Of a DNA stretch of 64,000 nt, positions 3,991 to 62,532 are shown piece after piece. Position numbers and translations under genes: made by a program. The stretch's first letter is position 1. The number at the start of each line of letters is the position of its first letter. The notes beneath the pieces were generated by a model. That model did not search any database. It was given only the letters and a program-made list of their open reading frames with translations, and was not told the origin of the DNA. The stretch covers positions 70,796-134,795 of the forward strand of contig JBAZKN010000001.1 in NCBI GenBank assembly GCA_041650755.1, in the 5' to 3' direction. The DNA comes from Patescibacteria group bacterium. Lineage in GTDB: Bacteria > Patescibacteriota > Patescibacteriia > UBA1558 > GWA2-36-10.

Positions 3991-4155
3991 ATATTCTTAT
4001 GTTCCTCACAATTTGGCTCTATTTTAAGGCAAATTAAAGCAAAACAGAGGCTAGGCAGTCTCTATAAAGATAAACAGCTGCGATGCTCGCGGCGCAGAGT
4101 CACTGGTTGCGTTCCGCTCAACCCGTTGGGTTAGAGCAGAAAGAGAGAGTGTGAG

Positions 4156-5034
4156 ATGAAGAAGAACGGTTGGTTCAAGGCATGCTTCCCTCTGATCGTG
4201 ATGCTTCTGCTCGCAAGCATCGTCCTGCTCATGCTGGGGTGCAGTCACGAGACGCAGCAGACCACGGCGCAGACCCAGATCGCTCGAGTCGACTCGATCA
4301 TCAAGGCTGCGAAAGATGAGCGGCCCCCGGCCAAGTTCAGAATCTTGGACAGGTCCGAGGCCGAGAAGAAGTTCGATCCGCGGCTGATCAAGGCGTTCAA
4401 CCGTCTAGCCACACAGGAGTTTGCTGCTTGGGAGTTGATCGAGGGTCTGCCGTTCTCTATGACCAGTGGTACGTACATTGTCGGTCAGGATAGCCTGCGT
4501 ACAATGTACTACTGGCTGGTCGATACGGTGATGGACTACAATGCCCAAGTGGGCACCTTTCAAGGCCTTGCCTTCTTGACGCCTGAAGAGTGGCATTCGG
4601 CCTATGAGCTAATGTGGGAGCTTCGGCTTCCGCGGCCGAGTTCTAGGTGCTTCACTCCCACCAGCTACGTGCAGGTGGGTGCACACAACGAGTTGGAGCA
4701 CTTTGGCAATGTTCTGTTCTTCACTGGTGAGCGATTGTACCAGGAGTTGTTCAACATCAACAACGCCTTGATTAACGCCAAGACACATGCCGACTCGTTG
4801 TCGGCGGCTCCGGATTCGCTCAAGCCGGAGCTGGTACAGAGGTACGATCTGATCAAGGATGGAACGACGGTCTATAAGGTGTTGGAGAATCATCCCGACA
4901 AGAAGTGTATCCTGGTGCACCGAGTCAGCGACAAGGAGACAAGGCTCATCTACTATGAAGACTTCCGCCGCGGGGCCAGACTTCTCGCCAAGGGTTCGCC
5001 TGACTGGGTGGAGGCGGTCTGTCGCATCTTCTGA
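4156..5034 (+). CDS. Hypothetical lipoprotein encoded on GC-rich island A
   Basis: RBS agagagagtgtgag; signal peptide plus lipobox MLGC|S; coding GC about 55% versus about 37% background; no recognisable domain. Confidence 0.65.
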   Translation: MKKNGWFKACFPLIVMLLLASIVLLMLGCSHETQQTTAQTQIARVDSIIKAAKDERPPAKFRILDRSEAEKKFDPRLIKAFNRLATQEFAAWELIEGLPFSMTSGTYIVGQDSLRTMYYWLVDTVMDYNAQVGTFQGLAFLTPEEWHSAYELMWELRLPRPSSRCFTPTSYVQVGAHNELEHFGNVLFFTGERLYQELFNINNALINAKTHADSLSAAPDSLKPELVQRYDLIKDGTTVYKVLENHPDKKCILVHRVSDKETRLIYYEDFRRGARLLAKGSPDWVEAVCRIF

Positions 5035-5054
5035 CACCAAGAGCCAACAACAAC

Positions 5055-5094
5055 GCAAAGGGGCGCTGGACCGACATAGGTCTTGAGCCCCTTT
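5055..5094 (+). terminator. Hairpin terminator after the island A gene
   Basis: aaggggc...gcccctt 7-bp stem followed by ttcatttt. Confidence 0.5.
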
Positions 5095-5120
5095 TCATTT
5101 TGCGAAAAAAGGAATTAAAG

Positions 5121-5154
5121 CGGCTCGTCCCGAGCGTAGTCGAGGGACGAGCCG
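5121..5154. terminator. Bidirectional GC-rich hairpin between convergent genes
   Basis: cggctcgtccc gagcgtagtcga gggacgagccg, an 11-bp perfect stem. Confidence 0.6.
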
Positions 5155-5169
5155 CTCAAAGCTTGTAAC

Positions 5170-6387
5170 TTATTTTTTGAGATACGCTTCCAGGCCCAAT
5201 TTAAATATATGCATAGCTGTGCGTAGTTTGTCAGCTGACAAAACATAAGCAATACGCACTTCATTTTTACCTAAACCAGGAGTGATATAAAAATCTTTCA
5301 GAGGCGATATCAGGATAGTTTGTTTTTTGTGGCTAAATTTAGTCAGCATAAAACGAATAAAATCTTCAGTGTCTTTGACCGGCAGCTTGGCCACTTGATA
5401 AAAAGCGCCGGCCGGAGTGTTGCTGACAACATTGGGGATTTTTTTGAGCGCCTGATTGACAATTTGGCTGCGTTTTTGGTAGGTGGTCTTTATTTTTTTG
5501 GTATAGGCCCTAAAATCTTTGATCAGTGGCGTACAGGCGATTTGTTCAATAGTTGGTGCCGATAGTCTGATCATAGCCAGCTTTAGAGCAGCAGACATCA
5601 TCTCCAGATTGTAGCTGGCGATTATCCCTAGTCTGGCTCCGGGGAGGGAAAACCTTTTGGACAGACTATCTATTAGTATAGTGCGCGGTCTGGCGGCAGC
5701 TTGCTGTAAAATACTTTTGGCTCGGCCGGTAAAGACAATTTCCCGGTAAGTTTCATCAGCAATAATAAAAAGATTTTTTTGCCGGGCAATCTCCACAATC
5801 ATTTTCAGCTCTTTGTCTGACCAGACTTTGCCAGTGGGATTATCAGGATTGATGATGATAATAGCTTTGGTTTTTGGAGAAATCTTTTTTAAAATTTCCG
5901 TTTTTTTCGGCAAAGCAAAATTATCAGCTAGTTGCAAAGTGATGGGCACTAGTTTTACCTGGGCCATTTTGGCAAAACCGCGATAATTGGTATATAGCGG
6001 CTCAAAAACAATAATTTCATCATTGGGGTTGGCGACTAGTAATAGAGACCAGAGTATGGCCTCGCCAGCGCCGATGGTGGGTAGAAGATTTTCTGGCTTA
6101 AAATTAAGACCATAGGCAGCATAATATTTTTGCCAAGCAGACACATGTTCGACTAGGCCGCTGGAGGGAGCATAGGGGACTTGTCCGGATTTTATTTTTT
6201 TTAGTGTCTGAAAAAATTTGGGCGGCGGTAAGATATCAGGATCGCCGATATTTATTTTTAAAACCTTGATGCCTCGTTTTTCCGCCTGTCTGACCAGAGG
6301 CAGAAATTTTCTGATCGGAGAAGCGACCAGGCTATTGGTTCTTGACGATAGTATTGGTTTAGACATATATTTTTGTAGAATAATCAT
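5170..6387 (-). CDS. Class I/II pyridoxal-phosphate aminotransferase (aspartate / LL-DAP aminotransferase-like)
   Basis: ASPIRKF N-terminal motif; PLP-lysine context SLSKRFSLPGARLG; NPDNPTG motif. The track start at 6477 runs through the upstream terminator, so the start is more likely 6387 (MIILQKYMSKP) or 6366 (MSKP). Confidence 0.85.
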   Translation of the reverse strand: MIILQKYMSKPILSSRTNSLVASPIRKFLPLVRQAEKRGIKVLKINIGDPDILPPPKFFQTLKKIKSGQVPYAPSSGLVEHVSAWQKYYAAYGLNFKPENLLPTIGAGEAILWSLLLVANPNDEIIVFEPLYTNYRGFAKMAQVKLVPITLQLADNFALPKKTEILKKISPKTKAIIIINPDNPTGKVWSDKELKMIVEIARQKNLFIIADETYREIVFTGRAKSILQQAAARPRTILIDSLSKRFSLPGARLGIIASYNLEMMSAALKLAMIRLSAPTIEQIACTPLIKDFRAYTKKIKTTYQKRSQIVNQALKKIPNVVSNTPAGAFYQVAKLPVKDTEDFIRFMLTKFSHKKQTILISPLKDFYITPGLGKNEVRIAYVLSADKLRTAMHIFKLGLEAYLKK

Positions 6388-6515: not shown

Positions 6516-7103
6516 TTATTTTTTCTTTTTAGCGGCTGATTTTTTTGGAGCAGTTTTTGCCTTTTTTTCTTTAGCTGGTTTTTTCGCCTTAATCTCTTTA
6601 ACCGTTGCTATTGGCTCTGTTTTTGTTACTGAATTTTTAGGTGCCAGGATTTTTATTAACTCGTCTATTTTGGCATTTAGTTTTTTGATCTCACTCATGA
6701 CATCCCCGGAATGTTGATTTATATTGCCGCCCTTACCAAAACAGTTATTACAATAAACCGGTTTGCCGGCAGTTGGCCGAAAAGGTATTTGGCAAGTCTG
6801 ACCGCATTTATCGCAAACCGCGTCATAAATTTGTTTACCGCCTCTATCACCACCGAATTTATTTGATCTGGCATTGCCGCCATCTTGTTTACCAAAGCAG
6901 TTACTGCAATAAATTGGTCGGTCACCAGTGGGCTTGAAAGGAACTTCGCAAGCATAGCCGCATTCACTGCAGATAGCTTTGTGCATTGTTTTAGCACCAT
7001 CTCGGCCGCCGAATCTTTTTCCGCCGCCAAATGATTTATTGCCGCCAAAACCACGATTAAAGCCACCCCCTTGGCGGTTGCGGTTTCTATCAAAATTTGC
7101 CAT
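6516..7103 (-). CDS. RGG-box / tandem CxxC(N17)CxxC zinc-ribbon / Lys-rich tail protein, a putative nucleic-acid-binding protein
   Basis: N-terminus GGGFNRGFGGNKSFGGGKRFGG; two copies of C-x2-C-x4-(V/I)PF-x-P-x5-P-(I/V)-YC-x2-CF; coiled-coil segment; C-terminal AKKPAKEKKAKTAPKKSAAKKKK. Confidence 0.75.
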   Translation of the reverse strand: MANFDRNRNRQGGGFNRGFGGNKSFGGGKRFGGRDGAKTMHKAICSECGYACEVPFKPTGDRPIYCSNCFGKQDGGNARSNKFGGDRGGKQIYDAVCDKCGQTCQIPFRPTAGKPVYCNNCFGKGGNINQHSGDVMSEIKKLNAKIDELIKILAPKNSVTKTEPIATVKEIKAKKPAKEKKAKTAPKKSAAKKKK

Positions 7104-7280: not shown

Positions 7281-7354
7281 TCGGGGATCGTCTAATGGTA
7301 GGACAGCGGCCTTTGGAGCCGTGAATCTAGGTTCGACTCCTAGTCCCCGAGCCA
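7281..7354 (+). tRNA. tRNA-Gln (anticodon TTG)
   Basis: Acceptor tcgggga/tccccga with U1-A72; U8; T-arm ctagg ttcgact cctag; anticodon loop ctTTGga; discriminator G plus encoded CCA. Confidence 0.85.
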
Positions 7355-7450
7355 AGCGAACGAAGTGAGCTTGGTTCGAAACTTCAAAGGATGCTCCGCA
7401 ATAGGCGGAGCAACCTAAGATGCTGCGCAATAGCGCAGCGCCCCGAGCCA
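7355..7450 (+). repeat. Reiterated tRNA-Gln 3'-end-derived unit with hairpins, copies R1 and R2
   Basis: atgctccgcaataggcggagc at 7391-7411 and atgctgcgcaatagcgcagcgCCCCGAGCCA at 7420-7450, which ends with the same 10 nt as the tRNA 3' end tccccgagcca. Confidence 0.7.
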
Positions 7451-7530
7451 TGCACCACCCATTCTCTCGCTATCACTCAATAATTTCGGGTGCATGGCAA
7501 AGCCACTGGGGTGAAAGGATACGTAGTGCA

Positions 7531-7613
7531 TGCAATGAACCCTAGCGTAGCGCATGGTTCATTGCAACAAAAACAAAATGATATGCTGCGCAATAGCGCA
7601 GCGTCCCGAGCCA
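7531..7613 (+). repeat. Third copy of the tRNA-3'-end repeat (R3) preceded by a perfect 11-bp hairpin
   Basis: tgcaatgaacc/ggttcattgca hairpin at 7531-7566; atgctgcgcaatagcgcagcgTCCCGAGCCA at 7583-7613, 30/31 identical to R2. Confidence 0.7.
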
Positions 7614-7695
7614 ATCAGTATGAGCATATAATCAAAAAAACAGAGTTGAAATCCCTGTTTTTATTTTTTATTGATAATTATAAAAATAAAAAAAG

Positions 7696-7736
7696 AGAGG
7701 TCTGTGGATGCGTGCGGCGCATCCAGAGCAGACCTC
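7696..7736 (-). terminator. Strong nested-hairpin rho-independent terminator for the minus-strand island B gene
   Basis: agaggtctg [tggatgcg tgcg gcgcatcca] gag cagacctct, followed on the minus strand by a T-rich run. Confidence 0.7.
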
Positions 7737-7765
7737 TCGAGTTCACAGCCACCCCTCAATCACTA

Positions 7766-7792
7766 GATGAGGGTGCAGAGGAGGAGTGGCTA
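7766..7792 (+). repeat. Left copy of a direct repeat bounding GC island B
   Basis: ATGAGGGTGCAG 12/12 identical and about 21/27 over the extended match to 9945-9971. Confidence 0.55.
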
Positions 7793-8143
7793 CGGCAGGT
7801 CTCCCAGCCAGCCGTCATCGCCGTATTCGGTCTCGATGTAGATCGAGACCAGACAGAGCCAATTGAACGCCGTCCGCGCCCAGTTGAACTCCTTGGCGGT
7901 CTCGCAGTAGATGCTGTCGAACACATCGGCCTGGGCGTTCGTCGGACCGATGATCGACATCATGCTCTCGATCGCGGTGATGACAGCGGTGGCCGGCGGC
8001 GAAGCGACAGCGGGCATCATCGTCGTCAGGACGATCTCGTTCGGCTGCGGCGGCATGGTCGCGTTGTGCTGCGGCAAAGGCACGGCCATCAAGACCGTGA
8101 TCGCCAGCGTGCACAAGCCGATCAAAACGACATTCCTCTTCAT
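7790..8143 (-). CDS. Small secreted protein (signal peptide) on GC island B, hypothetical
   Basis: RBS cgaggagaggaac before ATG at 8143 (MKRNVVLIGLCTLAITVLMAVPLPQ...); about 60% GC; track ORF trimmed to this start; the long plus-strand ORF 7490..8206 is an antisense artefact. Confidence 0.6.
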   Translation of the reverse strand: MKRNVVLIGLCTLAITVLMAVPLPQHNATMPPQPNEIVLTTMMPAVASPPATAVITAIESMMSIIGPTNAQADVFDSIYCETAKEFNWARTAFNWLCLVSIYIETEYGDDGWLGDLP

Positions 8144-8231
8144 GTTCCTCTCCTCGCGTTGGTGGGGAAGCTGGACGCAAATCAAAGAACCTGGGTTACC
8201 GGCTGATAGATTCCTCCTTTCCCGAGGGACG

Positions 8232-8921
8232 TTAGCGAAACAGAGCTGTTTGCCTGGGCGCTACGATGCCTGGGTCCAGCGCGATGCTGGCGACTTGAGC
8301 GCCGAGGTATCGGCGCTCTACTAGCACCCAGACGATCTTTTTGGTTCCGTCCGGCTCTTGCGTATTGAACGCATTGTTGCTGAACTCCACCACTTGCCTG
8401 CGGCTATCGCACAAAGGCTCTCTTCCTCTTTGTTCTTGGAAGCACAGAACGCCACTGTCGCTGACAGGGATGGTCGAAGAGTCAGCGGTCGAGATGTACA
8501 GGGTGATTGTGCCTCGGCGGAAGAGAATCTTGTAGTCGTCTGGCATGGTGATGGCCAGGCGATACACTACCAGGTTGGGGTTGGTGACCAACTTGGACAG
8601 GAGATAGTCGGAGCGGGGATGCGGGGTGATAGGCTTACCATCCGGGTCAACGCCAGTCATCAATTGCTTGATACCGGCCATAGATGCTGGGACACCGCGA
8701 TCCCTGAACAACTGGTCAAGCTCTTGTATGCGCCTGTCGTACCATTGCTTGGGATCGCCCCAGCCGCTGTTCATGGTAGAGAAGATCACGTCTGGAGTCA
8801 GGCTAGGTAGCGGAGTGTAGGTGATGTCCGTCGGCCTGCCAGCGATTGCCGCTGTGTCTAGCAGTCCAAGGCCGCAAAAGACAATCAGCGACAGGATGAG
8901 GAAAGCGACTCTTCTCAACAT
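8232..8921 (-). CDS. Secreted hypothetical protein (230 aa) on GC island B
   Basis: AGGAG RBS 7 nt before ATG at 8921; signal peptide MLRRVAFLILSLIVFCGLGLLDTAAIAG; about 60% GC. Confidence 0.65.
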   Translation of the reverse strand: MLRRVAFLILSLIVFCGLGLLDTAAIAGRPTDITYTPLPSLTPDVIFSTMNSGWGDPKQWYDRRIQELDQLFRDRGVPASMAGIKQLMTGVDPDGKPITPHPRSDYLLSKLVTNPNLVVYRLAITMPDDYKILFRRGTITLYISTADSSTIPVSDSGVLCFQEQRGREPLCDSRRQVVEFSNNAFNTQEPDGTKKIVWVLVERRYLGAQVASIALDPGIVAPRQTALFR

Positions 8922-9127
8922 GTTGGTACTCCTTCTGCCCCTTTGGGGCAATGAGGGGTTGCTTTTCAAAGAACCGATTGGCTGGCTTTTGGCCGCCATT
9001 ATGTCAACTCTCGTTAACTCTTTATATAAATACTTACGTGGTTTTTTGTCAAGACTTGACCTTTTGCATAGACAAAAACCCCACTAAGTGAGGCCTTTTA
9101 TCATTATTTGGGTTATTTTCTTGGGAT

Positions 9128-9207
9128 AAGTGCCGGTTACGCCACTAGCTCTTGATTACCTATTTGGCGTCCAAAATATGGATGGTAATCAGTCATTGCC
9201 TCACTTT
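9128..9207 (+). repeat. Structured repeat copy A: conserved 5' box, variable 7-bp stem, conserved loop
   Basis: gccggttacgcCactagctcTt / GATTACC ...ggcgtcca.aata... GGTAATC / agtcattgcctca. Confidence 0.7.
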
Positions 9208-9385
9208 TAGTATATTTTATATATACACCTTTTTCAAATATTTTGCAATACATGTATCTGAAGATAAGGAGGGGCCTGCCATGAACAGATAGAGAACTAG
9301 CTGTAGGCAGGCCCGGATGCTAAGTGTCAGATTTGGCACTTAGCCATGAGGATCAGTTTGGTAAGTGGTTGGAGGTTGGGGGGGG

Positions 9386-9793
9386 TCAGCAGGAGACGGC
9401 GAAGAAAGTCTCGATGTACTCGACAAAGCGCATGACGTTGAAAGGTTTGGACCAGAAAGGCACGCGATAGAGTTCTTGCAGGTGGCGGACTTGATCGGTG
9501 TGGTGGTGTCCAGTCAGGATGACCGAACACTTCTGAGACATCTCCATGTCATAAACCAGACCACAGAGCCAGCCGCCATCCACTTCGCTGGTTTCGGCGA
9601 TGATCACATCGGGGAATGGCCTGGTGCTGGCCAAAAGCCCGATGACGTCGACTGGGTGGAGCACCATCTTGGGGCTAGTGCTGCCCTTGGGCAGCACTAT
9701 GTTGGTCAGTACTTCGTGACCATTGCCTTCAAGAGCCTGGCACAGAGCGGTGATGGTGCTGTGGTCTTTGTCAAAAATGAAGATGCGCGACAT
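9386..9793 (-). CDS. Stand-alone atypical receiver (REC)-like protein with Glu replacing the phospho-acceptor Asp
   Basis: GGAGG RBS; IFIFDKDH (acid pocket), PDVIIAETSEVDGG (Asp to Glu), SVILTGHH (conserved Thr), WSKPF (conserved Lys); GC-rich. Confidence 0.55.
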   Translation of the reverse strand: MSRIFIFDKDHSTITALCQALEGNGHEVLTNIVLPKGSTSPKMVLHPVDVIGLLASTRPFPDVIIAETSEVDGGWLCGLVYDMEMSQKCSVILTGHHHTDQVRHLQELYRVPFWSKPFNVMRFVEYIETFFAVSC

Positions 9794-9944
9794 GGTCGTT
9801 GACCTCCTAGTCCCTTTATGGACTTCCTTGTGGTGATTGATTTACCATTCCCATTTGCTGAAAATGGCCAACAAGGCTTGCCAGACATCGTTGAACTTAT
9901 TCACGATTTTCTACCTCTGGTTGATGAGTAACAAAAAGACACCC

Positions 9945-9971
9945 AATGAGGGTGCAGGAAGGAGAGTAGCC
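9945..9971 (+). repeat. Right copy of the direct repeat bounding GC island B
   Basis: ccaATGAGGGTGCAGgaaggagagtagcca. Confidence 0.55.
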
Positions 9972-9980
9972 AAAAGCCAT

Positions 9981-10053
9981 TATGCCGGTTACGCTACTAG
10001 CTCCTAATCGTTCAAGCGTCCATATACAAACGATTATTCACAGCCTCATTTTG
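9981..10053 (+). repeat. Structured repeat copy B
   Basis: tatgccggttacgctactagctcct / AATCGTT caagcgtccatataca AACGATT / attcacagcctcatttt. Confidence 0.7.
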
Positions 10054-10133
10054 ATCCTCGATATATTGAAATGAACTTTAACAAAATACACCTCCCATTT
10101 AAGAGGCGTAACCGTTAAAGTCATTTTGACTAT

Positions 10134-10203
10134 TATGCCGGTTACGCTACTAGCTCCTGACCACCCAAGCGTCCATATACAGGTGGTCATTCATAGCCTC
10201 ATT
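10134..10203 (+). repeat. Structured repeat copy C
   Basis: tatgccggttacgctactagctcc / TGACCACC caagcgtccatataca GGTGGTCA / ttcatagcctcatta. Confidence 0.7.
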
Positions 10204-10269
10204 AGTGTATTATATTGTTAACAATTAGCAATATATCATATTACCCATATTTTGTCAATAGGGGATAAA

Positions 10270-11046
10270 TTATTCGTGAAAAAAGCGATTAGCTAAAAAT
10301 ACTATTACTAAGCCAATAAAAAACCAGATTAATTGTTGTAAATAGTGTTTGCTATTTTGTTGGTGTAAGCGCGGAATAATGTCTGATAAAGAAATATAAA
10401 GAAAAGAGCCGGTAGCCAAGGCAGTCAAGGCCAATTGATGAGATGCGCTTTGGCCATAAAAGAAAGCGCTGATGCCGCCCAGGACAGCCAACATGCCGGA
10501 AATAAAGTTAAAAATCAAGGCCTTGGTACGATTAAAGCCGGCATGTAGAAGTAAACTGAAATCACCGACTTCTTGGGGTATTTCATGTAAGGCAATAGCC
10601 ACCGTGGTGATAAGCCCGATATTGGTGCCCAGCATAAAGCTGGAAGCGATTACCATACCGTCAACAAAATTATGCAGACCATCACCGATCAGGACATTGT
10701 AGCCCATGGGGTGTATATTTTTTTCACTATCATGGTGATGGTGACAGTGGTGCCAATGTAAATATTTTTCCGCTAAAATAAATAATATAATCGAGACCAA
10801 AATCCAGGCCGATACGGTTTGAAAAGCATCGTTTTGGTTTTGGGCCTGGGACATGGACATGAGTTCTGGCAAAAGCTCAAAAAATACATTGGCCAGCAAA
10901 ACGGCTGCTGCCAGAGAAATGGTAGCTTCCATGATTTTTTGCGCCTTGGCTTTCTGGCTAAAAATAAACAAGCCAGCAAAAGACAGCAAGCTGACAAATA
11001 GAGTGGCAATAATGATATTTAGTAGAGTAACCATATTTTCTAACAT
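10270..11046 (-). CDS. zupT: ZIP-family zinc transporter ZupT
   Basis: HHCHHHHD loop; HEIPQEVGDFSLLL signature; multi-TM. Confidence 0.9.
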   Translation of the reverse strand: MLENMVTLLNIIIATLFVSLLSFAGLFIFSQKAKAQKIMEATISLAAAVLLANVFFELLPELMSMSQAQNQNDAFQTVSAWILVSIILFILAEKYLHWHHCHHHHDSEKNIHPMGYNVLIGDGLHNFVDGMVIASSFMLGTNIGLITTVAIALHEIPQEVGDFSLLLHAGFNRTKALIFNFISGMLAVLGGISAFFYGQSASHQLALTALATGSFLYISLSDIIPRLHQQNSKHYLQQLIWFFIGLVIVFLANRFFHE

Positions 11047-42897: not shown

Positions 42898-45354
42898 ATG
42901 GAATTTACCGTTGAAAATATAGCTGTTGTCATTAGCCTGGTTATTATTCTTAGTATTATTTTTCCCGTGATCGCAAATTATCAAAAAAATAAGGTTGATA
43001 AGAATTTAAAATTGGACATGTTATTGATTAAAGTGCCGAAATATACCAAGCAAGAAAAAGAAGAGTTGTCCAAACAATACATTGAACAGACTTTAGGTAA
43101 AATTGAAAATTTTTTTTCTGCCCTAGCTGGCCTCAAGGCCGAACATCCTTTTTTGGGGCAAGCCAAAGAAATTTTTTCCCTAGATATTGTTTCGGTAGAT
43201 GGTTTTATAAATTTTTACGCGGCCGTGCCGCCAAAATTTAAAGACTTCTTTATTGCCCAGCTGCAGGCTGTCTATCCCAAAATTTATGTAGAAGAAGTGG
43301 TTGATTATAATATTTTTCAGCCACAAGGACAGGTCTTGGCTGGCAATTTATCTTTTGCCAATGATTTTACTTTACCCATCAAGACATATAAGACTTTTGA
43401 AAATGACCCCTTAGAGGGAATTACCAATACCTTAAGTAAGCTGACCAACGACGAATCGGCTGTTGTGCAATATGTCTTTAAATCTGCCCCCAAAAAATGG
43501 CATCAACGCGGCCGTCAACTGGCTCAAAAAATGCAAGCCGGAGCTACTTTTGCCGATGCTATTAAACAGGTTGGTGGCACTTCTTTTTTTGATAAATTGG
43601 AAAAAACAGGTAGTTTTTTTGGCAGCTTTTTTGCTACCAGTAAAAAAGAGGATGAGCAAAAAAAGAAATCCCTGGAAGTCAAACAGCCCTTGTCAGCCAT
43701 GGAACAAGAGCGGGCCAAAAGCCTAGAAGCAAAAACTTCTAAAGCTGGTTTGGATGTCAATATTCGCATCGTAGTTTCAACCAGAAGCTTGGAGCGCTCC
43801 AAGGCAGTTTTACTGGACGTTCTCAATAGCTACAATCAATATAATATTTATGAGTTTGGCAATCGTTTTCAAGCCAGTATACCGCGCCACCCGGATACTA
43901 TTATTGAGTACTTGATTTATCGACATTTTTCAAACAAGCGTAAACTTTTGCTCAACGCTGAGGAAATGGTCAGCGTGGTGCATCTGCCTTTACCGACCAC
44001 TGAAACGCCAAATATTGATTGGCTAGAAGCTGTCAAGGCGCCACCGCCCAGCAGTCTGCCCAGCGAAGGCATTATTTTGGGCAAAAGCATTTATCGTGGC
44101 AAAGAAACTTTGGTGCGCATCAAGGATGCTGATCGTCGGCGACACATGTACGAAATCGGCCAGACCGGTACTGGTAAGTCTGCCTTTATGGAAAGCTTGA
44201 TTAAACAGGATATTGAAGCTGGCAAAGGATTGTGCGTGATTGATCCGCACGGTGAATTGGTAGAAAGATGCTTAACCTATATACCAAAAGAAAGAGCCGA
44301 AGACGTGATTGTTTTTGATCCATCGGATACTGATCGGCCAGTAGCCATTAACATGTTGGAATATGATACCGATGAACAGAAGACTTTTGTGATCAACGAA
44401 ATGATCGCTATCTTTGATAAGCTTTATGATCTGAAAGCTACTGGTGGGCCGATGTTTGAGCAATATATGCGTAATGCAATGCTTTTGGTGATGGACGACA
44501 AAGATTCGGGAGCGACTTTGTTGGAAGTGCCGAGAGTCTTGTCAGATGAAGCTTACCGCAAGCACAAGTTGAGCAAGGTCAAGAACCGCTTAGTCAAAGA
44601 TTTTTGGGAAAAAGAAGCGCAAAAAGCCGGCGGTGAAGCGTCCCTAGCCAATATGGTACCCTATATCACTAGCAAGCTCACGCCTTTTATTGCCAATGAT
44701 ATCATCCGGCCGATTATTGCCCAGCAAAAAAGCGCTTTCAATTTTCGTGAAGCAATGGATAGCAAAAAGATTATCATGATCAATCTATCCAAGGGCAAAA
44801 TTGGTGACATGAATAGTAGCCTTTTGGGCATGATTATTATTGGTAAACTACTATTTGCCGCTTTGAGCAGAGCGGATTATACTGAAGAGCAACGCAATGA
44901 TTTTTATCTCTATATTGATGAGTTCCAAAATTATACTACCGATAGTATCGCTATTATTTTATCCGAAGCCAGAAAATACAAACTGAATTTAATTATCGCT
45001 CATCAGTATATCGCTCAGCTGGTAAAAAATAACGACACCAAGATTCGAGATGCTGTTTTTGGCAATGTCGGCACTATCATCGCTTATCGTCTAGGCGTAG
45101 AGGACGCAGAGGTGATTGCCAAGCAAATGGCCCCGGTGGTTACTGAATATGACCTGATCAATATGCCAAAATTTACGGCTTATATAAAATTATTGATTGA
45201 TAATGCCAATCCGCCAGCCTTTAATTTTAATCCCATTAGGCCGGAAAAAGGCAACTTTGAGCTAGCGGCGGCCATCAAACAATTGTCTCGATTAAAATAT
45301 GGCCGTGATAGAAAAACAGTAGAAGACGAGGTTCAGCAAAGGATTATCATTTAG
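42898..45354 (+). CDS. Membrane-anchored FtsK/HerA-superfamily (VirB4/VirD4/DUF87-like) P-loop ATPase, fused N-domain plus ATPase
   Basis: N-terminal TM; Walker A IGQTGTGKS followed by VIDPHGEL (DPHGE signature); Walker B YIDEFQNY; ARKYKLNLIIAHQYIAQL; FGNVGTIIAYRLG. Confidence 0.75.
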   Translation: MEFTVENIAVVISLVIILSIIFPVIANYQKNKVDKNLKLDMLLIKVPKYTKQEKEELSKQYIEQTLGKIENFFSALAGLKAEHPFLGQAKEIFSLDIVSVDGFINFYAAVPPKFKDFFIAQLQAVYPKIYVEEVVDYNIFQPQGQVLAGNLSFANDFTLPIKTYKTFENDPLEGITNTLSKLTNDESAVVQYVFKSAPKKWHQRGRQLAQKMQAGATFADAIKQVGGTSFFDKLEKTGSFFGSFFATSKKEDEQKKKSLEVKQPLSAMEQERAKSLEAKTSKAGLDVNIRIVVSTRSLERSKAVLLDVLNSYNQYNIYEFGNRFQASIPRHPDTIIEYLIYRHFSNKRKLLLNAEEMVSVVHLPLPTTETPNIDWLEAVKAPPPSSLPSEGIILGKSIYRGKETLVRIKDADRRRHMYEIGQTGTGKSAFMESLIKQDIEAGKGLCVIDPHGELVERCLTYIPKERAEDVIVFDPSDTDRPVAINMLEYDTDEQKTFVINEMIAIFDKLYDLKATGGPMFEQYMRNAMLLVMDDKDSGATLLEVPRVLSDEAYRKHKLSKVKNRLVKDFWEKEAQKAGGEASLANMVPYITSKLTPFIANDIIRPIIAQQKSAFNFREAMDSKKIIMINLSKGKIGDMNSSLLGMIIIGKLLFAALSRADYTEEQRNDFYLYIDEFQNYTTDSIAIILSEARKYKLNLIIAHQYIAQLVKNNDTKIRDAVFGNVGTIIAYRLGVEDAEVIAKQMAPVVTEYDLINMPKFTAYIKLLIDNANPPAFNFNPIRPEKGNFELAAAIKQLSRLKYGRDRKTVEDEVQQRIII

Positions 45355-47626: not shown

Positions 47627-47700
47627 TGCCGGATCGTCTAATGGTAGGACGTCAGGTTCTGGCCCTGATAATCTAGGTTCGATTCCTAGTCCGGCAGCCA
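47627..47700 (+). tRNA. tRNA-Gln (anticodon CTG)
   Basis: Acceptor tgccgga/tccggca with U1-A72; anticodon loop ttCTGgc; T-arm ctagg ttcgatt cctag; encoded CCA. Confidence 0.85.
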
Positions 47701-47712
47701 AATTTTAATAAA

Positions 47713-48408
47713 ATGAAGTATAAGATTCAAGGAAAAAATATTAATTTGGTATTAAAAGAAGATGTTTTTTCCCCATCTATTCACGGTTCGTCAGCTTTAG
47801 CAGAAAATATAAAAGTCAATCGCGGTGAATCGGTTCTAGATCTCGGTACCGGCACGGGTATCCTAGCTATTTTAGCTGCAAAATTAGGCGGTCAGGTTAC
47901 TGCGGTGGATGTACTACCAAAAGCTGTGGCATTGGCTAAGATAAATTTTAAAAAAAATCATGTTACAATTAGATTGAAACATGGTAATTTGTTTAGGCCT
48001 GTTATCAAAAATAAATATGATGTAATTATTGCTAATATTCCGCAAGAAAATTTGTCTCCTAAAATTATAAAATCTGTGCGTAAAGAAATTTTTATAGGTA
48101 TGCATGGTGGCAAGTATGGAAACGAAATTTTATTAAACGTTTTAAAAAATGCTCCTAAACATATGCACAAACTGTCCAGATTGTATGTGGTGATTTATTC
48201 AATGAGTAATTTTAGAAAAAGCTTACAAACAATTTATAAATTATATCAAGCAAAACTTATACATTTTTATACTGGGCCAGTCAAAAATTTTATTTATGAT
48301 GATTTAGACTGGTATGAGAGTGAATCTAGAAGTGGTCGCATAAATATTTATAAAAAAGGTAATAAATATTTTGCAGATCTTTTTGTTTTTGAATTAACAT
48401 TAAAATAG
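47713..48408 (+). CDS. Class I SAM-dependent methyltransferase (MTS/HemK-like small domain)
   Basis: VLDLGTGTGILAI motif I; DVIIANIPQ motif IV. Confidence 0.7.
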   Translation: MKYKIQGKNINLVLKEDVFSPSIHGSSALAENIKVNRGESVLDLGTGTGILAILAAKLGGQVTAVDVLPKAVALAKINFKKNHVTIRLKHGNLFRPVIKNKYDVIIANIPQENLSPKIIKSVRKEIFIGMHGGKYGNEILLNVLKNAPKHMHKLSRLYVVIYSMSNFRKSLQTIYKLYQAKLIHFYTGPVKNFIYDDLDWYESESRSGRINIYKKGNKYFADLFVFELTLK

Positions 48409-48441
48409 CCTAATTTAGATTCTCGAAGCGAAGCGTAGACC

Positions 48442-48472
48442 ATGCTGAATAGCGGGGCTAGCCCCCGAGCCA
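48442..48472 (+). repeat. tRNA-Gln(TTG) 3'-end mimic repeat (R4) at the edge of GC island C
   Basis: atgctgaatagcggggCTAGCCCCCGAGCCA versus the tRNA 3' end CTAGTCCCCGAGCCA (14/15); homologous to R2/R3 at 7420-7613. Confidence 0.65.
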
Positions 48473-48513
48473 AAAAAATTTGAAGCCCCAAGTTTTATTT
48501 TTTTTATGAAAAA

Positions 48514-48545
48514 AAGTTGGCCACAAGGGGCCAACCGTCGTGAAG
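48514..48545 (-). terminator. Rho-independent terminator of the island C gene
   Basis: gttggcc acaagg ggccaac with a T-run on the minus strand. Confidence 0.65.
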
Positions 48546-48570
48546 CAAGCTAGCACAGGCAGTGTTGGAC

Positions 48571-48861
48571 CTACCAGCCATAGAGGCGCCGGTGATCCTC
48601 GGCAGCGCGCCGAGCCGCTCGTGCAGCTGCATCCTGCTCCATCATGGACCGCAGGCAGATACTCTCAACCTCGCTTTGGCGCATGGCCAAGATTTCGCCC
48701 GCATCGGGCCCGTTGAGTGCGGCCAGCTTGGCCGCCTTGGCTGATCGCTTGCGCTCCTGCGAAGCAGCTTGGCCGTGGGTCGGACCTTGGCCAAAGTGTC
48801 GATATTGTTGTCGTCTGCCACTTGGTACGTGACTTTCATCTAAGAACTTGTCTCGAGCCAT
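48571..48861 (-). CDS. Small basic Arg/Ala-rich hypothetical protein on GC island C
   Basis: GGGAGG RBS 7 nt before ATG at 48861 (MARDKFLDE...); about 62% GC; 96 aa. Confidence 0.5.
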   Translation of the reverse strand: MARDKFLDESHVPSGRRQQYRHFGQGPTHGQAASQERKRSAKAAKLAALNGPDAGEILAMRQSEVESICLRSMMEQDAAARAARRAAEDHRRLYGW

Positions 48862-48971
48862 GAGTTTCCTCCCTGGTTGGGGGACACACACTGGGGCAAA
48901 GACTATACATTATATAGCTTAATAAATAATAAAAATATTGTCAAAATCATTATTCTTGATATAATCAAACA

Positions 48972-58291: not shown

Positions 58292-60001
58292 ATGAATGTT
58301 AATGATATAACAACTTTTGCTGAGACTAATTTCCGTAATTCACGGGTAAAGTTTGGTATTAAGACAGACGATAGGCGCCGACATATGTATATTATCGGTA
58401 AAACTGGCATGGGTAAATCAACCTTGTTGGAAAACATGATCATTCAGGACATCCAGGCCGGCAAAGGAGTTTGCGTAGTCGATCCACATGGTGAGCTGGT
58501 TGAAAAAGTGATTGATTTTATACCACAGAACCGCATCAATGATGTAATTTATTTCAATCCCGCTGACCTTGAATACCCGATAGCCTTTAATGTGCTGGAA
58601 AGCGTCAACATCGAGCAACGCCATTTGGTAGTTTCTGGATTGATCGGTGTCTTTAAAAAGATCTGGGCTGATTCCTGGGGCCCAAGACTAGAATATGTTC
58701 TGCATCATGCAATTTCTGCTTTGCTGGAATATCCTGGCTCGACCCTTTTGGGCATTATGCGCATGCTGACGGACAAAAAGTTTCGTGAGCGGGTAGTTGA
58801 TAAAGTGACCGATCCAGTGGTAAAGGCCTTTTGGGTTGATGAATATTCTCGTTATCCAGACAATCTCAAGGCCGAAGCCATTGCTCCGATTCAAAACAAG
58901 GTAGGCCGATTTTTATCCTCTTCTTTGATTAGAAACGTCCTGGGCCAGGTCAGATCTTCCTTCTCAATGCGGGAAATTATGGATGGCAAAAAAATATTGT
59001 TACTAAATTTATCCAAAGGCAGGGTGGGCGAGGATAACTCGGCTTTACTTGGCTCCATGATGATCACCAAGATTCAGCTGGCTGCCATGAGCCGGATAGA
59101 TACCCCGGAACAGGAGCGCAATGATTTTTACCTTTATGTTGATGAATTTCAAAATTTTGCCACCCAAAGTTTTGCCAATATTCTATCAGAAGCGCGTAAG
59201 TATAGGCTGAACTTGATCATGGCCCACCAATATATTGATCAATTAAAATGGGGTAATGATGAAACGGTCAAGTCGGCAGTCTTTGGTAATGTCGGCACCA
59301 TCATTGCTTTCCGCGTTGGTGCTACTGATGCGGAATTTCTGGAAAAAGAATTTTTCCCGGTTTTTACTCAAGAAGATTTGGTCAATCTGTCTAAATACGA
59401 AATTTATCTAAAATTAATGGTTGATGGCGTAGCCACTGAGCCATTTTCAGGAGTAGGCTTGCCGCCGGTAATATTACCTGCCGAATCAATCGGCATCAAA
59501 GAAAAGGTGATCAAAGTATCCAGAGAAAGATATGCCAAGCCCCGCGAGATTATTGAAGATAAAATCGCTCGTTGGGCAGAAAATAAAGAGGGCAAAGAGC
59601 CAGAAAAAAACAGCAAAGAAGACAGAGTAAAAAAATCCAAAAAAAAAGGCGATGAGGAAAGAAAATCTGGTTCCAAAAAGCCAAAAATCAGCAAAATAAT
59701 AAATTGCACTTACTGCGGTAAAGAAGCGGAAATCAATTTTGAGCCCGATCCTACTAGGCCAGTATACTGCGATGATTGTTTGATACTGGCCAAACAAGGA
59801 AAAATTCCCTCTCCTACCAGTATCAAAATACTCAAAGAAGAGTCAGCCAGTAAAAAAGTAGATGATGATCAGACCAAAGAACAGTTTATCTCTCTATCGG
59901 AAGCAATAAAATCAAATAATCTTCATTCTGGCAAAGAAAAAAGTAAGCAAGTGGCCGAGGATGAGCATCTGCTTCAGCCAGGACAAATTGTTAAGTTTTA
60001 A
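58292..60001 (+). CDS. FtsK/HerA-superfamily (VirB4/VirD4/DUF87-like) ATPase with C-terminal Lys-rich linker and zinc ribbon
   Basis: IIGKTGMGKST Walker A; VVDPHGELVE; YVDEFQNF Walker B; ARKYRLNLIMAHQYIDQL; C-terminus CTYCGKEAEINFEPDPTRPVYCDDC. Confidence 0.75.
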   Translation: MNVNDITTFAETNFRNSRVKFGIKTDDRRRHMYIIGKTGMGKSTLLENMIIQDIQAGKGVCVVDPHGELVEKVIDFIPQNRINDVIYFNPADLEYPIAFNVLESVNIEQRHLVVSGLIGVFKKIWADSWGPRLEYVLHHAISALLEYPGSTLLGIMRMLTDKKFRERVVDKVTDPVVKAFWVDEYSRYPDNLKAEAIAPIQNKVGRFLSSSLIRNVLGQVRSSFSMREIMDGKKILLLNLSKGRVGEDNSALLGSMMITKIQLAAMSRIDTPEQERNDFYLYVDEFQNFATQSFANILSEARKYRLNLIMAHQYIDQLKWGNDETVKSAVFGNVGTIIAFRVGATDAEFLEKEFFPVFTQEDLVNLSKYEIYLKLMVDGVATEPFSGVGLPPVILPAESIGIKEKVIKVSRERYAKPREIIEDKIARWAENKEGKEPEKNSKEDRVKKSKKKGDEERKSGSKKPKISKIINCTYCGKEAEINFEPDPTRPVYCDDCLILAKQGKIPSPTSIKILKEESASKKVDDDQTKEQFISLSEAIKSNNLHSGKEKSKQVAEDEHLLQPGQIVKF

Positions 60002-61531: not shown

Positions 61532-61927
61532 ATGACTAGAATTATTATCGCTTCTGGTCCGGTGATAGTCGAAAATAATAAGGTTCTTCTCAACCAACAT
61601 GGCGACACTGATTTTTGGAAATTTTGTGGCGGCCGCGTAGAGGATAGCGAACAAAATTTGATCACAGCCGCGCAAAGAGAAGCTAAAGAAGAAATGGGTA
61701 TTGAAATAGAAATACTGGATCCAGAGCCGTTTATTACTTATACCCACAAAGATACCGATCAAGGACGCATTGATGTATTATTGGTGCACTATTTATCTAA
61801 AAGAATAGGCGAGATAAAGCCCGGAGCTGATATCAGAGAATGGCAATGGTTTGATCTGGATAAATTACCGGCTAATTTTGGGCCAAATATCCTGCCCGCT
61901 CTAAAGCATTTTAATCTTATAAAATAA
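61532..61927 (+). CDS. NUDIX hydrolase
   Basis: Nudix box GGRVEDSEQNLITAAQREAKEEMGIE. Confidence 0.85.
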   Translation: MTRIIIASGPVIVENNKVLLNQHGDTDFWKFCGGRVEDSEQNLITAAQREAKEEMGIEIEILDPEPFITYTHKDTDQGRIDVLLVHYLSKRIGEIKPGADIREWQWFDLDKLPANFGPNILPALKHFNLIK

Positions 61928-61932
61928 AAAAG

Positions 61933-61958
61933 AAGCCCCGCGCCTGCGGAGCTTCGAT
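61933..61958. terminator. Bidirectional GC hairpin terminator at the AT/GC boundary of island D
   Basis: gaagccccgcgcctgcggagcttc flanked by an A-run on the plus strand and a T-run on the minus strand. Confidence 0.65.
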
Positions 61959-61980
61959 GTTTCTGCGCCCTAGTCTCTTC

Positions 61981-62532
61981 TTAGGCCACTTCCTGGGTGC
62001 GGTCTAGAAAAGAGACGTCGATTTCACTTGCCAAGTAAGCGAGCAGTCTGTCCAAAGCCTCTTGCCCGGCAGGGCTGTTTTCGAAAATCAGCCGAAGGCG
62101 ATGAAGCTCGGGATAGCCGACCTCTGGCCAATGCCCGTCCAGAACCGGATCGTCATCGCGATGCTCAAGATGCTTGATCAGCCACTCTAACCTCAGGTTG
62201 CTTGGCTCAGGCGGCACCAATAGATCAAGGATGCCGTATTGATGCGTCATGACCAAAGCTTCACAGTCAGCCGGCTGATCATCTTTGCCCAAAACAGTTT
62301 CTTGATAGGGCAGATTGAGCATTTTGGCAACTTCGCGCATGAAGACCAATAATTCCTCTAGCCGGCTGGGCTCAACCATCACCCTGATAAGGTCGCCTTC
62401 ATGCTTCATGATGATGAACTTCAGATGAGTGGCTTGCACCCTATCACGGATGACTGAAAAGCACCGTTCAGGAAATTCGTACTCGACAAGTATTCGACGC
62501 AGAACCATCTCGAAAACATTGCTGTCAGACAT
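61981..62532 (-). CDS. Hypothetical acidic protein on GC island D
   Basis: GGGAGG RBS; about 55% GC; 183 aa; no recognisable motif. Confidence 0.55.
   Translation of the reverse strand: MSDSNVFEMVLRRILVEYEFPERCFSVIRDRVQATHLKFIIMKHEGDLIRVMVEPSRLEELLVFMREVAKMLNLPYQETVLGKDDQPADCEALVMTHQYGILDLLVPPEPSNLRLEWLIKHLEHRDDDPVLDGHWPEVGYPELHRLRLIFENSPAGQEALDRLLAYLASEIDVSFLDRTQEVA

Follow-up and report, generated by a model that had tools for sequence, protein, structure and literature searches.

The closest described counterpart of the locus analyzed here is cmrRST of Clostridioides difficile, which is controlled by a class II riboswitch for cyclic di-GMP (c-di-GMP) and encodes CmrT, an aspartate-less receiver with a glutamate (E53) at the acceptor position and a DGD motif. 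The locus itself lies in a 64-kb stretch of DNA from a Patescibacteria group bacterium (contig JBAZKN010000001.1; the whole stretch is called the window below). It comprises, on the minus strand, three predicted RNA elements of the same c-di-GMP-II class, which front the gene of a stand-alone receiver-like protein of 135 amino acids (aa) and two genes of exported proteins. We consider it probable that this unit is a c-di-GMP regulon which is chromosomal and specific to its lineage, in a bacterium of the Parcubacteria, within the candidate phyla radiation (CPR/Patescibacteria). Regulation and second-messenger signaling in this group are almost unstudied, and the literature searched contained no report of c-di-GMP riboswitches in it.

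Receivers lacking the phospho-accepting aspartate are common, the loss of the second metal-binding acidic residue (DD2) and the replacement of the acceptor aspartate by glutamate being the most frequent substitutions in pseudo-receivers, and such a glutamate can be phosphomimetic (Maule et al., 2015; Bourret et al., 2025). How these proteins are switched on and off has been called "a mystery" (Bourret et al., 2025). The engineered PhoB variant D10A/D53E (PDB 2jb9), which is constitutively active, is altered at the same two positions as the protein described here and appears at ranks 19 and 30 of its structural (Foldseek) matches. Stand-alone receivers which act by protein contact in the absence of an output domain include CheY, DivK, CpdR, PilH and the receiver of FrzS (PDB 2i6f). 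With the exception of FrzS, these are phosphorylated by kinases, whereas the present protein carries a glutamate at the acceptor position and would receive its input at the transcriptional level, via riboswitches.

With cmrRST, the locus shares a c-di-GMP-II switch over a receiver with glutamate as acceptor and a non-acidic DD2 position (D-G-D in CmrT, D-K-D here), and in both cases the activity is inferred to be independent of phosphorylation and set by the level of expression. CmrT, however, possesses an OmpR-type DNA-binding domain and is encoded together with a kinase and a canonical regulator, whereas a bare receiver is found here, with no kinase gene in the 64 kb. Furthermore, a single ON switch in C. 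difficile contrasts with a tandem, predicted OFF arrangement in the window, and the hosts belong to the Firmicutes and the CPR, respectively, with no sequence relationship detected beyond the receiver fold. Tandem class II riboswitches have been described as 59 doublets and 9 triplets, mostly located before surface-anchor genes of Paraclostridium, and are expected to sharpen the dose-response in a "pseudo-cooperative" manner (Sherlock et al., 2022, PMC9481103). As in these tandems, complete class II riboswitches with their own platforms stand in series before genes of exported or surface proteins; unlike in Paraclostridium, the first gene encodes a cytoplasmic pseudo-receiver and an extra aptamer lies inside the unit. 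What sets the locus apart from the known cases is an undescribed family of bare receiver domains which is wholly linked to riboswitches of predicted OFF polarity, with a third aptamer that would gate the export genes again, in a CPR host.

Class II aptamers in front of the receiver and export genes

At the sequence level, the link between class II aptamers and the expression of the module is demonstrable (Table 1). The gathering score of the Rfam model RF01786 is 53.5 bits, which aptamers 1 and 2 exceed, and no further aptamers of this model were found in the window beyond the three. Aptamer 2 is 85% identical to aptamer 1 over 72 nucleotides (nt), with compensatory changes in P2, and both retain the conserved core, consisting of GA, UGAA, GGAGC and AGU.GCGUAACCGGC. 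When 16 aptamers, taken from the window and five relatives, were aligned, 88.8% of the cells were paired and compensatory changes occurred in 20 of the 24 pairs; none of 500 shuffles matched these values, and slid registers were only 27-42% paired. The pseudoknot between the loop and the 3' tail is paired in all of these aptamers (100%) and includes two covarying pairs. Aptamer 3 reaches 67.1 bits with our own covariance model, R1, in whose training set aptamer 3 itself is included. The preliminary description of the unit, made from the DNA letters and their open reading frames (ORFs), had overlooked all three aptamers, and their presence reframes the unit as a putative c-di-GMP regulon.

The aptamers resembling aptamer 3 (a3-type) share deviations from the core, namely UGAC or UGAU for UGAA and AGAGC for GGAGC. 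These deviations would suit a c-di-GMP-II fold that senses another ligand, in the way that variants of GEMM-I sense cyclic GMP-AMP (cGAMP), as would the absence of c-di-GMP turnover genes from the 64-kb window and of any link between c-di-GMP riboswitches and this phylum from the literature searched. We know, however, of no class II variant with an alternative ligand, aptamers 1 and 2 lie above the gathering score with core and pseudoknot kept, and diguanylate cyclases have been reported in metagenome-assembled genomes of ultra-small groundwater bacteria. A change of ligand is therefore regarded as very improbable.

Table 1. Features of the locus, with positions counted within the 64-kb window
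Feature	Positions	Strand	Remarks
c-di-GMP-II aptamer 1	10127..10210	-	Rfam RF01786, 65.5 bits, E 2e-12
c-di-GMP-II aptamer 2, in tandem with aptamer 1	9974..10057	-	RF01786, 64.1 bits, E 5e-12
c-di-GMP-II-like aptamer 3, 5' of the secreted-protein genes	9122..9212	-	RF01786, 43.3 bits, E 2e-7
Intrinsic terminator 1, 10-bp hairpin and U-run	10079..10110	-	From fold and sequence
Intrinsic terminator 2, GCACCC/GGGUGU and U5	9930..9955	-	From fold and sequence
Intrinsic terminator 3, GCCUCAC/GUGGGGU and U5	9073..9094	-	From fold and sequence
Stand-alone aspartate-less pseudo-receiver, 135 aa	9386..9793	-	Glu67, Lys9, F113 at K-3, K116, C-terminal ..AVSC
Exported protein, 229 aa	8232..8921	-	Signal peptide, helical region, beta-rich C-terminal half; fast-evolving family
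Exported protein, 117 aa	7790..8143	-	T/A/P-rich linker, C-terminal Cys...NW...WLC motif
Conserved 20-codon ORF VNKFNDVWQALLAIFSKWEW	9842..9904	-	Between terminator 2 and the receiver gene; own ribosome-binding site; unannotated
Sigma-70-like promoter, TTGACA-17-TATATT with TG	10230..10258	-	Immediately 5' of aptamer 1; 11/12 consensus matches, by consensus only
Second promoter-like site, TTGAAA-17-TATACT	9209..9237	-	10/12 matches; uncertain
GC-rich hairpin 3' of the receiver gene	9272..9314	-	No clean U-tract; possibly a leaky terminator; from fold
Strong intrinsic terminator ending the unit	7688..7738	-	Long GC hairpin and U7
tRNA-Gln(UUG), conserved distal boundary	7281..7354	+	Also bounds the locus in relatives L001 and L003

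A stand-alone receiver without a phosphorylatable aspartate

The model of the 135-aa protein predicted by AlphaFold2 (AF2) from the family alignment has a mean confidence (pLDDT) of 91.3 and a (beta-alpha)5 topology, with strands and helices in the order E-H-E-H-E-H-E-H-E-H. When compared with the PDB by Foldseek, its 50 best matches are receiver domains without exception (50/50, TM score about 0.7), FrzS, DivK and Spo0F being among the best. The profile of the family matches the receiver 6xvu at E 0.0018 (HMMER). An alignment of this profile to the single sequence of CheY by hhalign was uninformative; the residue correspondences are taken from the 6xvu match and from a multiple alignment that bridges the family to CheY and PhoB. 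Glu67 thus aligns with D57 of CheY, D53 of PhoB and the acceptor aspartate of 6xvu, Lys9 replaces DD2 (aligned with D13), and D8 preserves the first acidic position (DD1). T94 and K116 align with T87 and K109 of CheY, and F113 occupies the K-3 position. Of the five active-site residues of receivers, DD2 and the acceptor aspartate are lost in the window protein, and DD1, the threonine and the lysine are present.

E67, D8 and F113 do not vary within the close family, where the threonine position holds T, I, M or V and the K116 position K or R; in remote members, the acceptor position is occupied by D, E or A. Since glutamate stands at the acceptor position and lysine at DD2, the protein is classified as an aspartate-less pseudo-receiver, and judged by these predicted positions it is one under the published definitions of aspartate-less receivers (ALR) and pseudo-receivers (PsR) (Maule et al., 2015; Bourret et al., 2025), although the surveys concerned start from receivers detected by hidden Markov models (HMMs) and the 135-aa protein escapes the HMM of Pfam. 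The protein probably works without phosphorylation.

Most of this had been guessed correctly in the preliminary description, which proposed a stand-alone CheY-like receiver with no output domain, glutamate in place of the phospho-accepting aspartate and, as a result, an aspartate-less pseudo-receiver. The structural comparison that it called for returned a receiver fold and not one unlike flavodoxin, and the lysine it singled out is K116. Its "DKD acid pocket" is accurate only as far as D8 is concerned, K9 occupying the second, metal-binding position and D10 lying outside the pocket. The threonine that it called conserved does stand at the T87 position, but is variable within the family. Its proposed alignment to the receiver HMM also had a divided outcome, the window protein remaining unmatched by Pfam and remote relatives being matched.

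The family is small, with 14 proteins recovered among 5.8 billion. When 1.84 billion representatives were searched exhaustively with the family profile, 19 matches were obtained, whose weak tail includes ordinary receivers and one spurious match of 510 aa. The members outside this tail are stand-alone proteins of 119-154 aa, two of them from sources labelled Candidatus Parcubacteria, and the Pfam Response_reg model matches only the remote ones, at 28-99 bits. Apart from being undetected by Pfam, the 135-aa protein differs from known pseudo-receivers in several family-specific features. These include a beta-hairpin insertion of 16-20 residues between beta2 and alpha2, a beta3-alpha3 loop which is two residues shorter and lacks the proline at D+4, an invariant DGGWLCGL motif and a C-terminal ..AVSC with an invariant final cysteine. 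Two cysteines of the close family, C89 and the terminal C135, are invariant, C77 and H26 are nearly so, and remote members likewise end in cysteine.

Conservation of the arrangement and of its chromosomal site

Among the family members whose genomic surroundings were retrieved from public assemblies, upstream sequence could be read at 11 distinct loci, comprising the window and, in relatives, L001, L003, L006, L008/9, L010, L012, L014, L016, L019 and L020, of which L012, L014, L016, L019 and L020 lie outside the training set of the covariance model. A class II aptamer is located 5' of the receiver-like gene in 11/11 of these loci and a tandem pair in 9/11. As would be expected for "pseudo-cooperative" tandems, aptamer and terminator 1 and aptamer and terminator 2 follow each other within 10210-9930 of the window, and the same arrangement is seen in the 9 loci. 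The linkage extends to remote family members of 19-39% identity, one of which has an aspartate as acceptor (L016). In the window, L006, L008/L009 and L012, the exported-protein gene that follows downstream is preceded by a further aptamer. L010 and L014 also have an aptamer 3' of the receiver gene, on contigs which end before any gene, and L001 and L003 have none there.

The genomic site is fixed as well. One flank is formed by the gene of a membrane protein of 541 aa in the window and 534-558 aa in relatives, beyond which SpoU methylase, PfkB and PTAC genes follow wherever the contigs reach, and in the window, L001 and L003 the opposite flank is formed by tRNA-Gln(UUG). All relatives recovered carry the receiver gene with its aptamers at this site, and only the exported cargo varies. 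The co-occurrence of the three genes, which the preliminary description had put forward for checking, was indeed found, the set recurring in L009 and, with related exported genes, in L001, L006 and L012.

Frequently, a ZIP or ZnuABC zinc-uptake gene lies between the membrane protein gene and the aptamers; in the window it is located at 10270-11046, 5' of the aptamers and on the same strand. This neighborhood raises the possibility that the receiver-like protein is a metal or redox factor of zinc homeostasis, acting through its cysteines and histidine, which is expressed by read-through from the Zur/ZIP or ZnuABC genes and for which the riboswitches are a second input. The gene does follow directly 3' of ZIP on the same strand in the window and L003, of a Fur-family gene and ZIP in L006 and L008, and of ZnuABC in L010, and C89, C135, C77, H26 and the terminal cysteine of remote members would be at hand for such a role. 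However, L001 and L020 have no zinc-transporter gene at this place, L012 has a gene of the RNA-ligase family instead, a near-consensus promoter separates ZIP from aptamer 1, and the adjacency may be inherited synteny. A link to zinc homeostasis is thus possible but weak, and the reading as a whole is improbable.

Two observations on individual relatives may be added. In L003 (5416-5977; identical to L004), an extra paralogous receiver of 123 aa and an ORF of 57 aa separate the tandem aptamers from the 137-aa gene. This extra receiver has glutamate at the acceptor position and a DGDWLC motif, and its match to a receiver model is weak (NCBIfam E 4e-11, below the family cut-offs), and precomputed data list Pfam Response_reg for it. 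L018 (CAYRIU010000025.1) is recorded as "uncultured Gammaproteobacteria bacterium"; since its gene order and proteins match those of the Parcubacteria relatives, this label is probably a binning or labelling error.

Base composition and the question of foreign origin

The preliminary description had placed the three genes on a foreign island and considered them a possible "regulatory hijack module" or "anti-signaling device". An enrichment in GC was confirmed (0.52-0.57 against about 0.40), the GC content of the locus being 0.52-0.62 versus about 0.40-0.41 for its surroundings and the window. At third codon positions (GC3), the genes of the window reach 0.68-0.89 versus 0.34-0.49. Across the window and L001, L003, L006, L009, L010 and L012, the riboswitch-controlled genes have GC3 values of 0.52-0.89 and neighboring housekeeping genes 0.18-0.49. 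At four-fold degenerate sites, C accounts for 0.37-0.52 in all receiver orthologues, and the neighboring SpoU gene is mostly T-rich. The identity between orthologues at these sites is 0.3-0.55, i.e., near saturation. Because the bias is present in all lineages despite near-saturated synonymous sites, it has been maintained rather than recently imported.

A horizontally acquired island at tRNA-Gln, carrying a constitutive pseudo-receiver and effectors that hijack or block the signaling of its own or another cell, would agree with the excess in GC and GC3, with a gene content that differs among relatives between the receiver gene and the tRNA, and with the direct vicinity of tRNA-Gln, whose 3' end CCCGAGCCA has two extra copies inside 260 nt (7442, 7605). 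These repeats are confined to the tRNA side, however, and no att-type copy of CCCGAGCCA lies on the far side beyond the genes. Neither an integrase nor any other mobility ORF was detected in 7.3-10.3 kb, and no similarity to phages, plasmids, PHROGs or PADLOC entries was found. Moreover, receiver gene and aptamers share their site beside the membrane protein gene in every relative, the receiver family was recovered in this lineage only (the 14 proteins and 19 representatives mentioned above), and the bias toward C at third positions persists in all lineages. Both a phage or defense island (on account of the lacking similarities) and a recently integrated tRNA island (no far-side repeat, no mobility gene, same site in all relatives) were therefore rejected. 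As mobility genes and far-side repeats are missing and the site is shared with relatives, "foreign island" and "hijack module" are unsupported, as is "anti-signaling device", and we give an acquired island very little chance of being the correct explanation.

Around the tRNA gene, a 40-nt direct repeat (88% identical, 7411-7450 and 7574-7613) carries the hairpin GCUGCGCAAUAGCGCAGC and has CCCGAGCCA, a copy of the 3' end of the tRNA, at its end; of CCCGAGCCA, a fourth copy is found at 48464, about 760 nt 3' of a second tRNA-Gln (47627-47700). The copies of CCCGAGCCA may be scars of old integrations. Further GC-rich patches of the window are located at 4001-5250, 48401-48950 and 61851-62450. The first contains a lipoprotein-like ORF of 292 aa with no family match (4156-5034, GC3 0.74), the second no convincing ORF and the third a minus-strand ORF of 183 aa with no Pfam match.

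Terminators and the polarity of the switches

Each aptamer of the window is followed by a hairpin and U-run of its own (10110-10087, 9955-9939 and 9094-9078 for aptamers 1, 2 and 3), 16-27 nt beyond it and having no nucleotides in common with it. As the terminators do not overlap the aptamers, a ligand-bound aptamer should be unable to prevent terminator folding directly. Aptamers and terminators are connected by long-range complementarity. The 5' arm of terminator 3, GCCUCACUU (9094-9086), and the 5' strand of aptamer 3, AAGUGAGGC, are perfectly complementary over 9 nt (shuffle p = 0.000), and the 5' arm and loop of terminator 2 (CCUCAUU, 9951-9945) are complementary to the 5' strand AAUGAGG of aptamer 2. 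At terminator 1, it is CGGUUACGC, located just 5' of the hairpin and overlapping it, which is complementary to the core GCGUAACCG of aptamer 1.

In 10 of 19 aptamers, the terminator 5' arm holds a perfect Watson-Crick complement of 6-9 nt to the aptamer's own 5' P1/P1b strand, and covariation between the two is seen (GAGGC:GCCUC, GAGAC:GUCUC, GUGAGG:CCUCAC), the shuffle p being <= 0.04 for 8 aptamers. Only Watson-Crick pairs were counted, G-U pairs being confounded by the U-tracts facing a purine-rich aptamer strand. The first aptamers of several loci, including that of the window, follow a second design, in which a segment overlapping the terminator 5' arm complements the 3' core of the aptamer. 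Enforcing P1/P1b makes the terminator form in each of the three leaders of the window. In the unconstrained structures of minimum free energy, aptamer 2 adopts the antiterminator, and aptamers 1 and 3 already contain the terminator. From the complementarity of the terminator arms and its covariation with the aptamer strands, OFF switches are predicted, and the view that high c-di-GMP stops transcription of the locus is moderately supported.

The opposite polarity would leave the architecture unchanged, with ON switches as in the class II riboswitches of C. difficile and with high c-di-GMP inducing the pseudo-receiver together with adhesin-like exports. In C. difficile, every characterized class II switch turns transcription on, driving adhesins, pili and cmrRST, and exported surface proteins are typical cargo of high c-di-GMP. 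The terminators present in the unconstrained folds of aptamers 1 and 3 could likewise mean that termination is the default. Yet, with terminators 16-27 nt away and nothing overlapping, it is not evident how a bound aptamer could block them. The only conserved and covarying long-range complementarity connects aptamer strands with the 5' arm of the terminator, or with the segment that overlaps this arm, and would be given up on ligand binding, and enforcing P1 leads to the terminator in every one of the three leaders. On balance, ON switches are unlikely, but with a chance that should be kept in mind.

Predicted exported proteins of the unit

The N-termini of the 229-aa and 117-aa proteins each consist of a K/R-containing n-region and a hydrophobic core of 15 residues with a mean Kyte-Doolittle value of about 2.8, which fits predicted Sec signal peptides. 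A cleavage-type motif, AIA|G, is present in the 229-aa protein, and no clear cleavage site is seen in the 117-aa protein, whose N-terminus could be a signal anchor. The "clean Sec signal peptides" of the preliminary description are putative for both proteins and less clear for the smaller one. Its statement that neither has a recognizable domain agrees with scans against Pfam, NCBIfam, PHROGs and PADLOC, which gave no match for these two proteins, nor for the 135-aa protein. The sizes of 230 and 118 aa that it gave are corrected to 229 aa, from the ATG preceded by a ribosome-binding site (RBS), and 117 aa.

Positional homologues of the 229-aa protein, with 21-25% identity, are encoded in L009, L001, L006 and L012, and several carry lipoboxes. 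A word-indexed homologue search returned the protein itself alone, and a profile built from five positional homologues added two more proteins. No fold is assigned to the 229-aa protein, because its structural model had no significant Foldseek match in the PDB. For the 117-aa protein, a counterpart with 38% identity was found in L009, and its Cys...NW...C motif is common to small exported proteins in L001 and L012. Divergence among the exported proteins is far more rapid than among the receivers (54-80% identity) or neighboring housekeeping proteins (65-76%), which fits putative roles at the surface or in host contact.

A proposed low-c-di-GMP programme

In the proposed regulon, two complete riboswitches would stand in series before the 20-codon ORF and the pseudo-receiver gene, and a third switch before the genes of the two exported proteins. 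In the ligand-free state, an aptamer strand would pair with the terminator 5' arm or, in aptamers of the type of aptamer 1, with a segment located 5' of this arm and overlapping it, and thereby form an antiterminator. The antiterminating strand would be the 5' strand of P1/P1b in most aptamers and the 3' core in the first aptamer of several loci. Upon binding, c-di-GMP would lock the aptamer so that the terminator forms. Two such OFF switches in series should result in tight and steep repression, the receiver gene being transcribed at low c-di-GMP only and the genes of the secreted proteins being gated once again.

The residues required for phosphorylation are missing, and the changes at the acceptor and DD2 positions are those which activate PhoB; for these reasons, the abundance of the receiver-like protein may itself be the signal. 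Tentatively, a dose set by riboswitches might thus replace the kinase input of an unphosphorylatable receiver with a glutamate of the phosphomimetic type. Equally tentatively, this receiver might act by protein-protein contact and constitute, together with exported proteins of the envelope or of host contact, a programme for low c-di-GMP.

Several observations weigh against this reading. The partner histidine kinase that the preliminary description suggested looking for was not found in the 64-kb window, nor was any gene for a GGDEF, EAL, HD-GYP or PilZ protein, as judged by regular expressions and Pfam scans of all large ORFs; as mentioned, diguanylate cyclases are reported in ultra-small groundwater bacteria. 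The receiver-like protein is not matched by the Response_reg HMM (PF00072) even at E <= 10, and glutamate at the acceptor position is not always activating, as described for other pseudo-receivers. Aptamer 3 remains below the gathering score of RF01786 (43.3 vs 53.5 bits). The ON/OFF assignment rests on sequence complementarity, thermodynamic folding of the whole leaders separates the two states for aptamer 2 only, and the characterized switches of C. difficile have the opposite polarity. In addition, the AF2 model of the 229-aa protein (from a three-sequence alignment) has a pLDDT of 64.7 and gave no Foldseek match in the PDB at E <= 0.001 or TM > 0.3.

A more far-reaching version of the regulon, which we find rather unlikely, is a pathway free of kinases in an ultrasmall epibiont, in which c-di-GMP, made by the cell itself or possibly coming from the host, is read by RNA only and the output is the dose of the receiver. 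If this were true, the riboswitch would take the place of the histidine kinase as the input of a receiver, a constitutively on-like receiver with a conserved C-terminal cysteine would switch host-contact machinery together with rapidly diversifying exported proteins, and a dedicated regime of translation or expression would lie behind the lineage-wide C-rich codon usage of exactly this set of genes. Independent of this version, a family with both aspartate and glutamate acceptors that is tied to c-di-GMP-II aptamers offers a testable case of receiver control by an RNA sensor instead of a kinase. The locus nominates a candidate c-di-GMP-responsive programme of an epibiotic bacterium, consisting of a micro-ORF, a receiver and two exported families. 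Native inducible elements are needed for the genetics of Patescibacteria, as stated in reviews, and the three aptamers with their terminators could serve as such elements.

Gene boundaries and further features of the window

The three minus-strand ORFs of the unit all have Shine-Dalgarno sites. For the middle gene, an alternative reading of 255 aa from 8999 is possible; the length of 229 aa was adopted because the RBS, the NCBI annotation (229 aa) and the homologues all begin at the signal peptide. ORFs on the opposite strand of the GC-rich stretch (e.g., 7490..8206 on the plus strand) were rejected as real genes, since it is in the minus-strand frames that an RBS, signal peptides and a GC3 periodicity are present and for these frames that homologues exist. 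The peptide of the 20-codon ORF is kept in L006 (MDKFDRALHLLVTILGKWEW) and L008/L009 (MPKLNRALRILITIFSKLEW) although the DNA has diverged, and L012 has a possible counterpart of 26 codons. The -10 box of the second promoter-like site directly adjoins aptamer 3, which makes this site uncertain.

Elsewhere in the window, the ORFs at 42898-45354 and 58292-60001 contain coupling-protein domains of the VirD4/TrwB type. The latter also carries a treble-clef zinc finger, zf_Tbcl_2, a Pfam family which is likewise present in a Gly-rich protein of 195 aa at 6516-7103.

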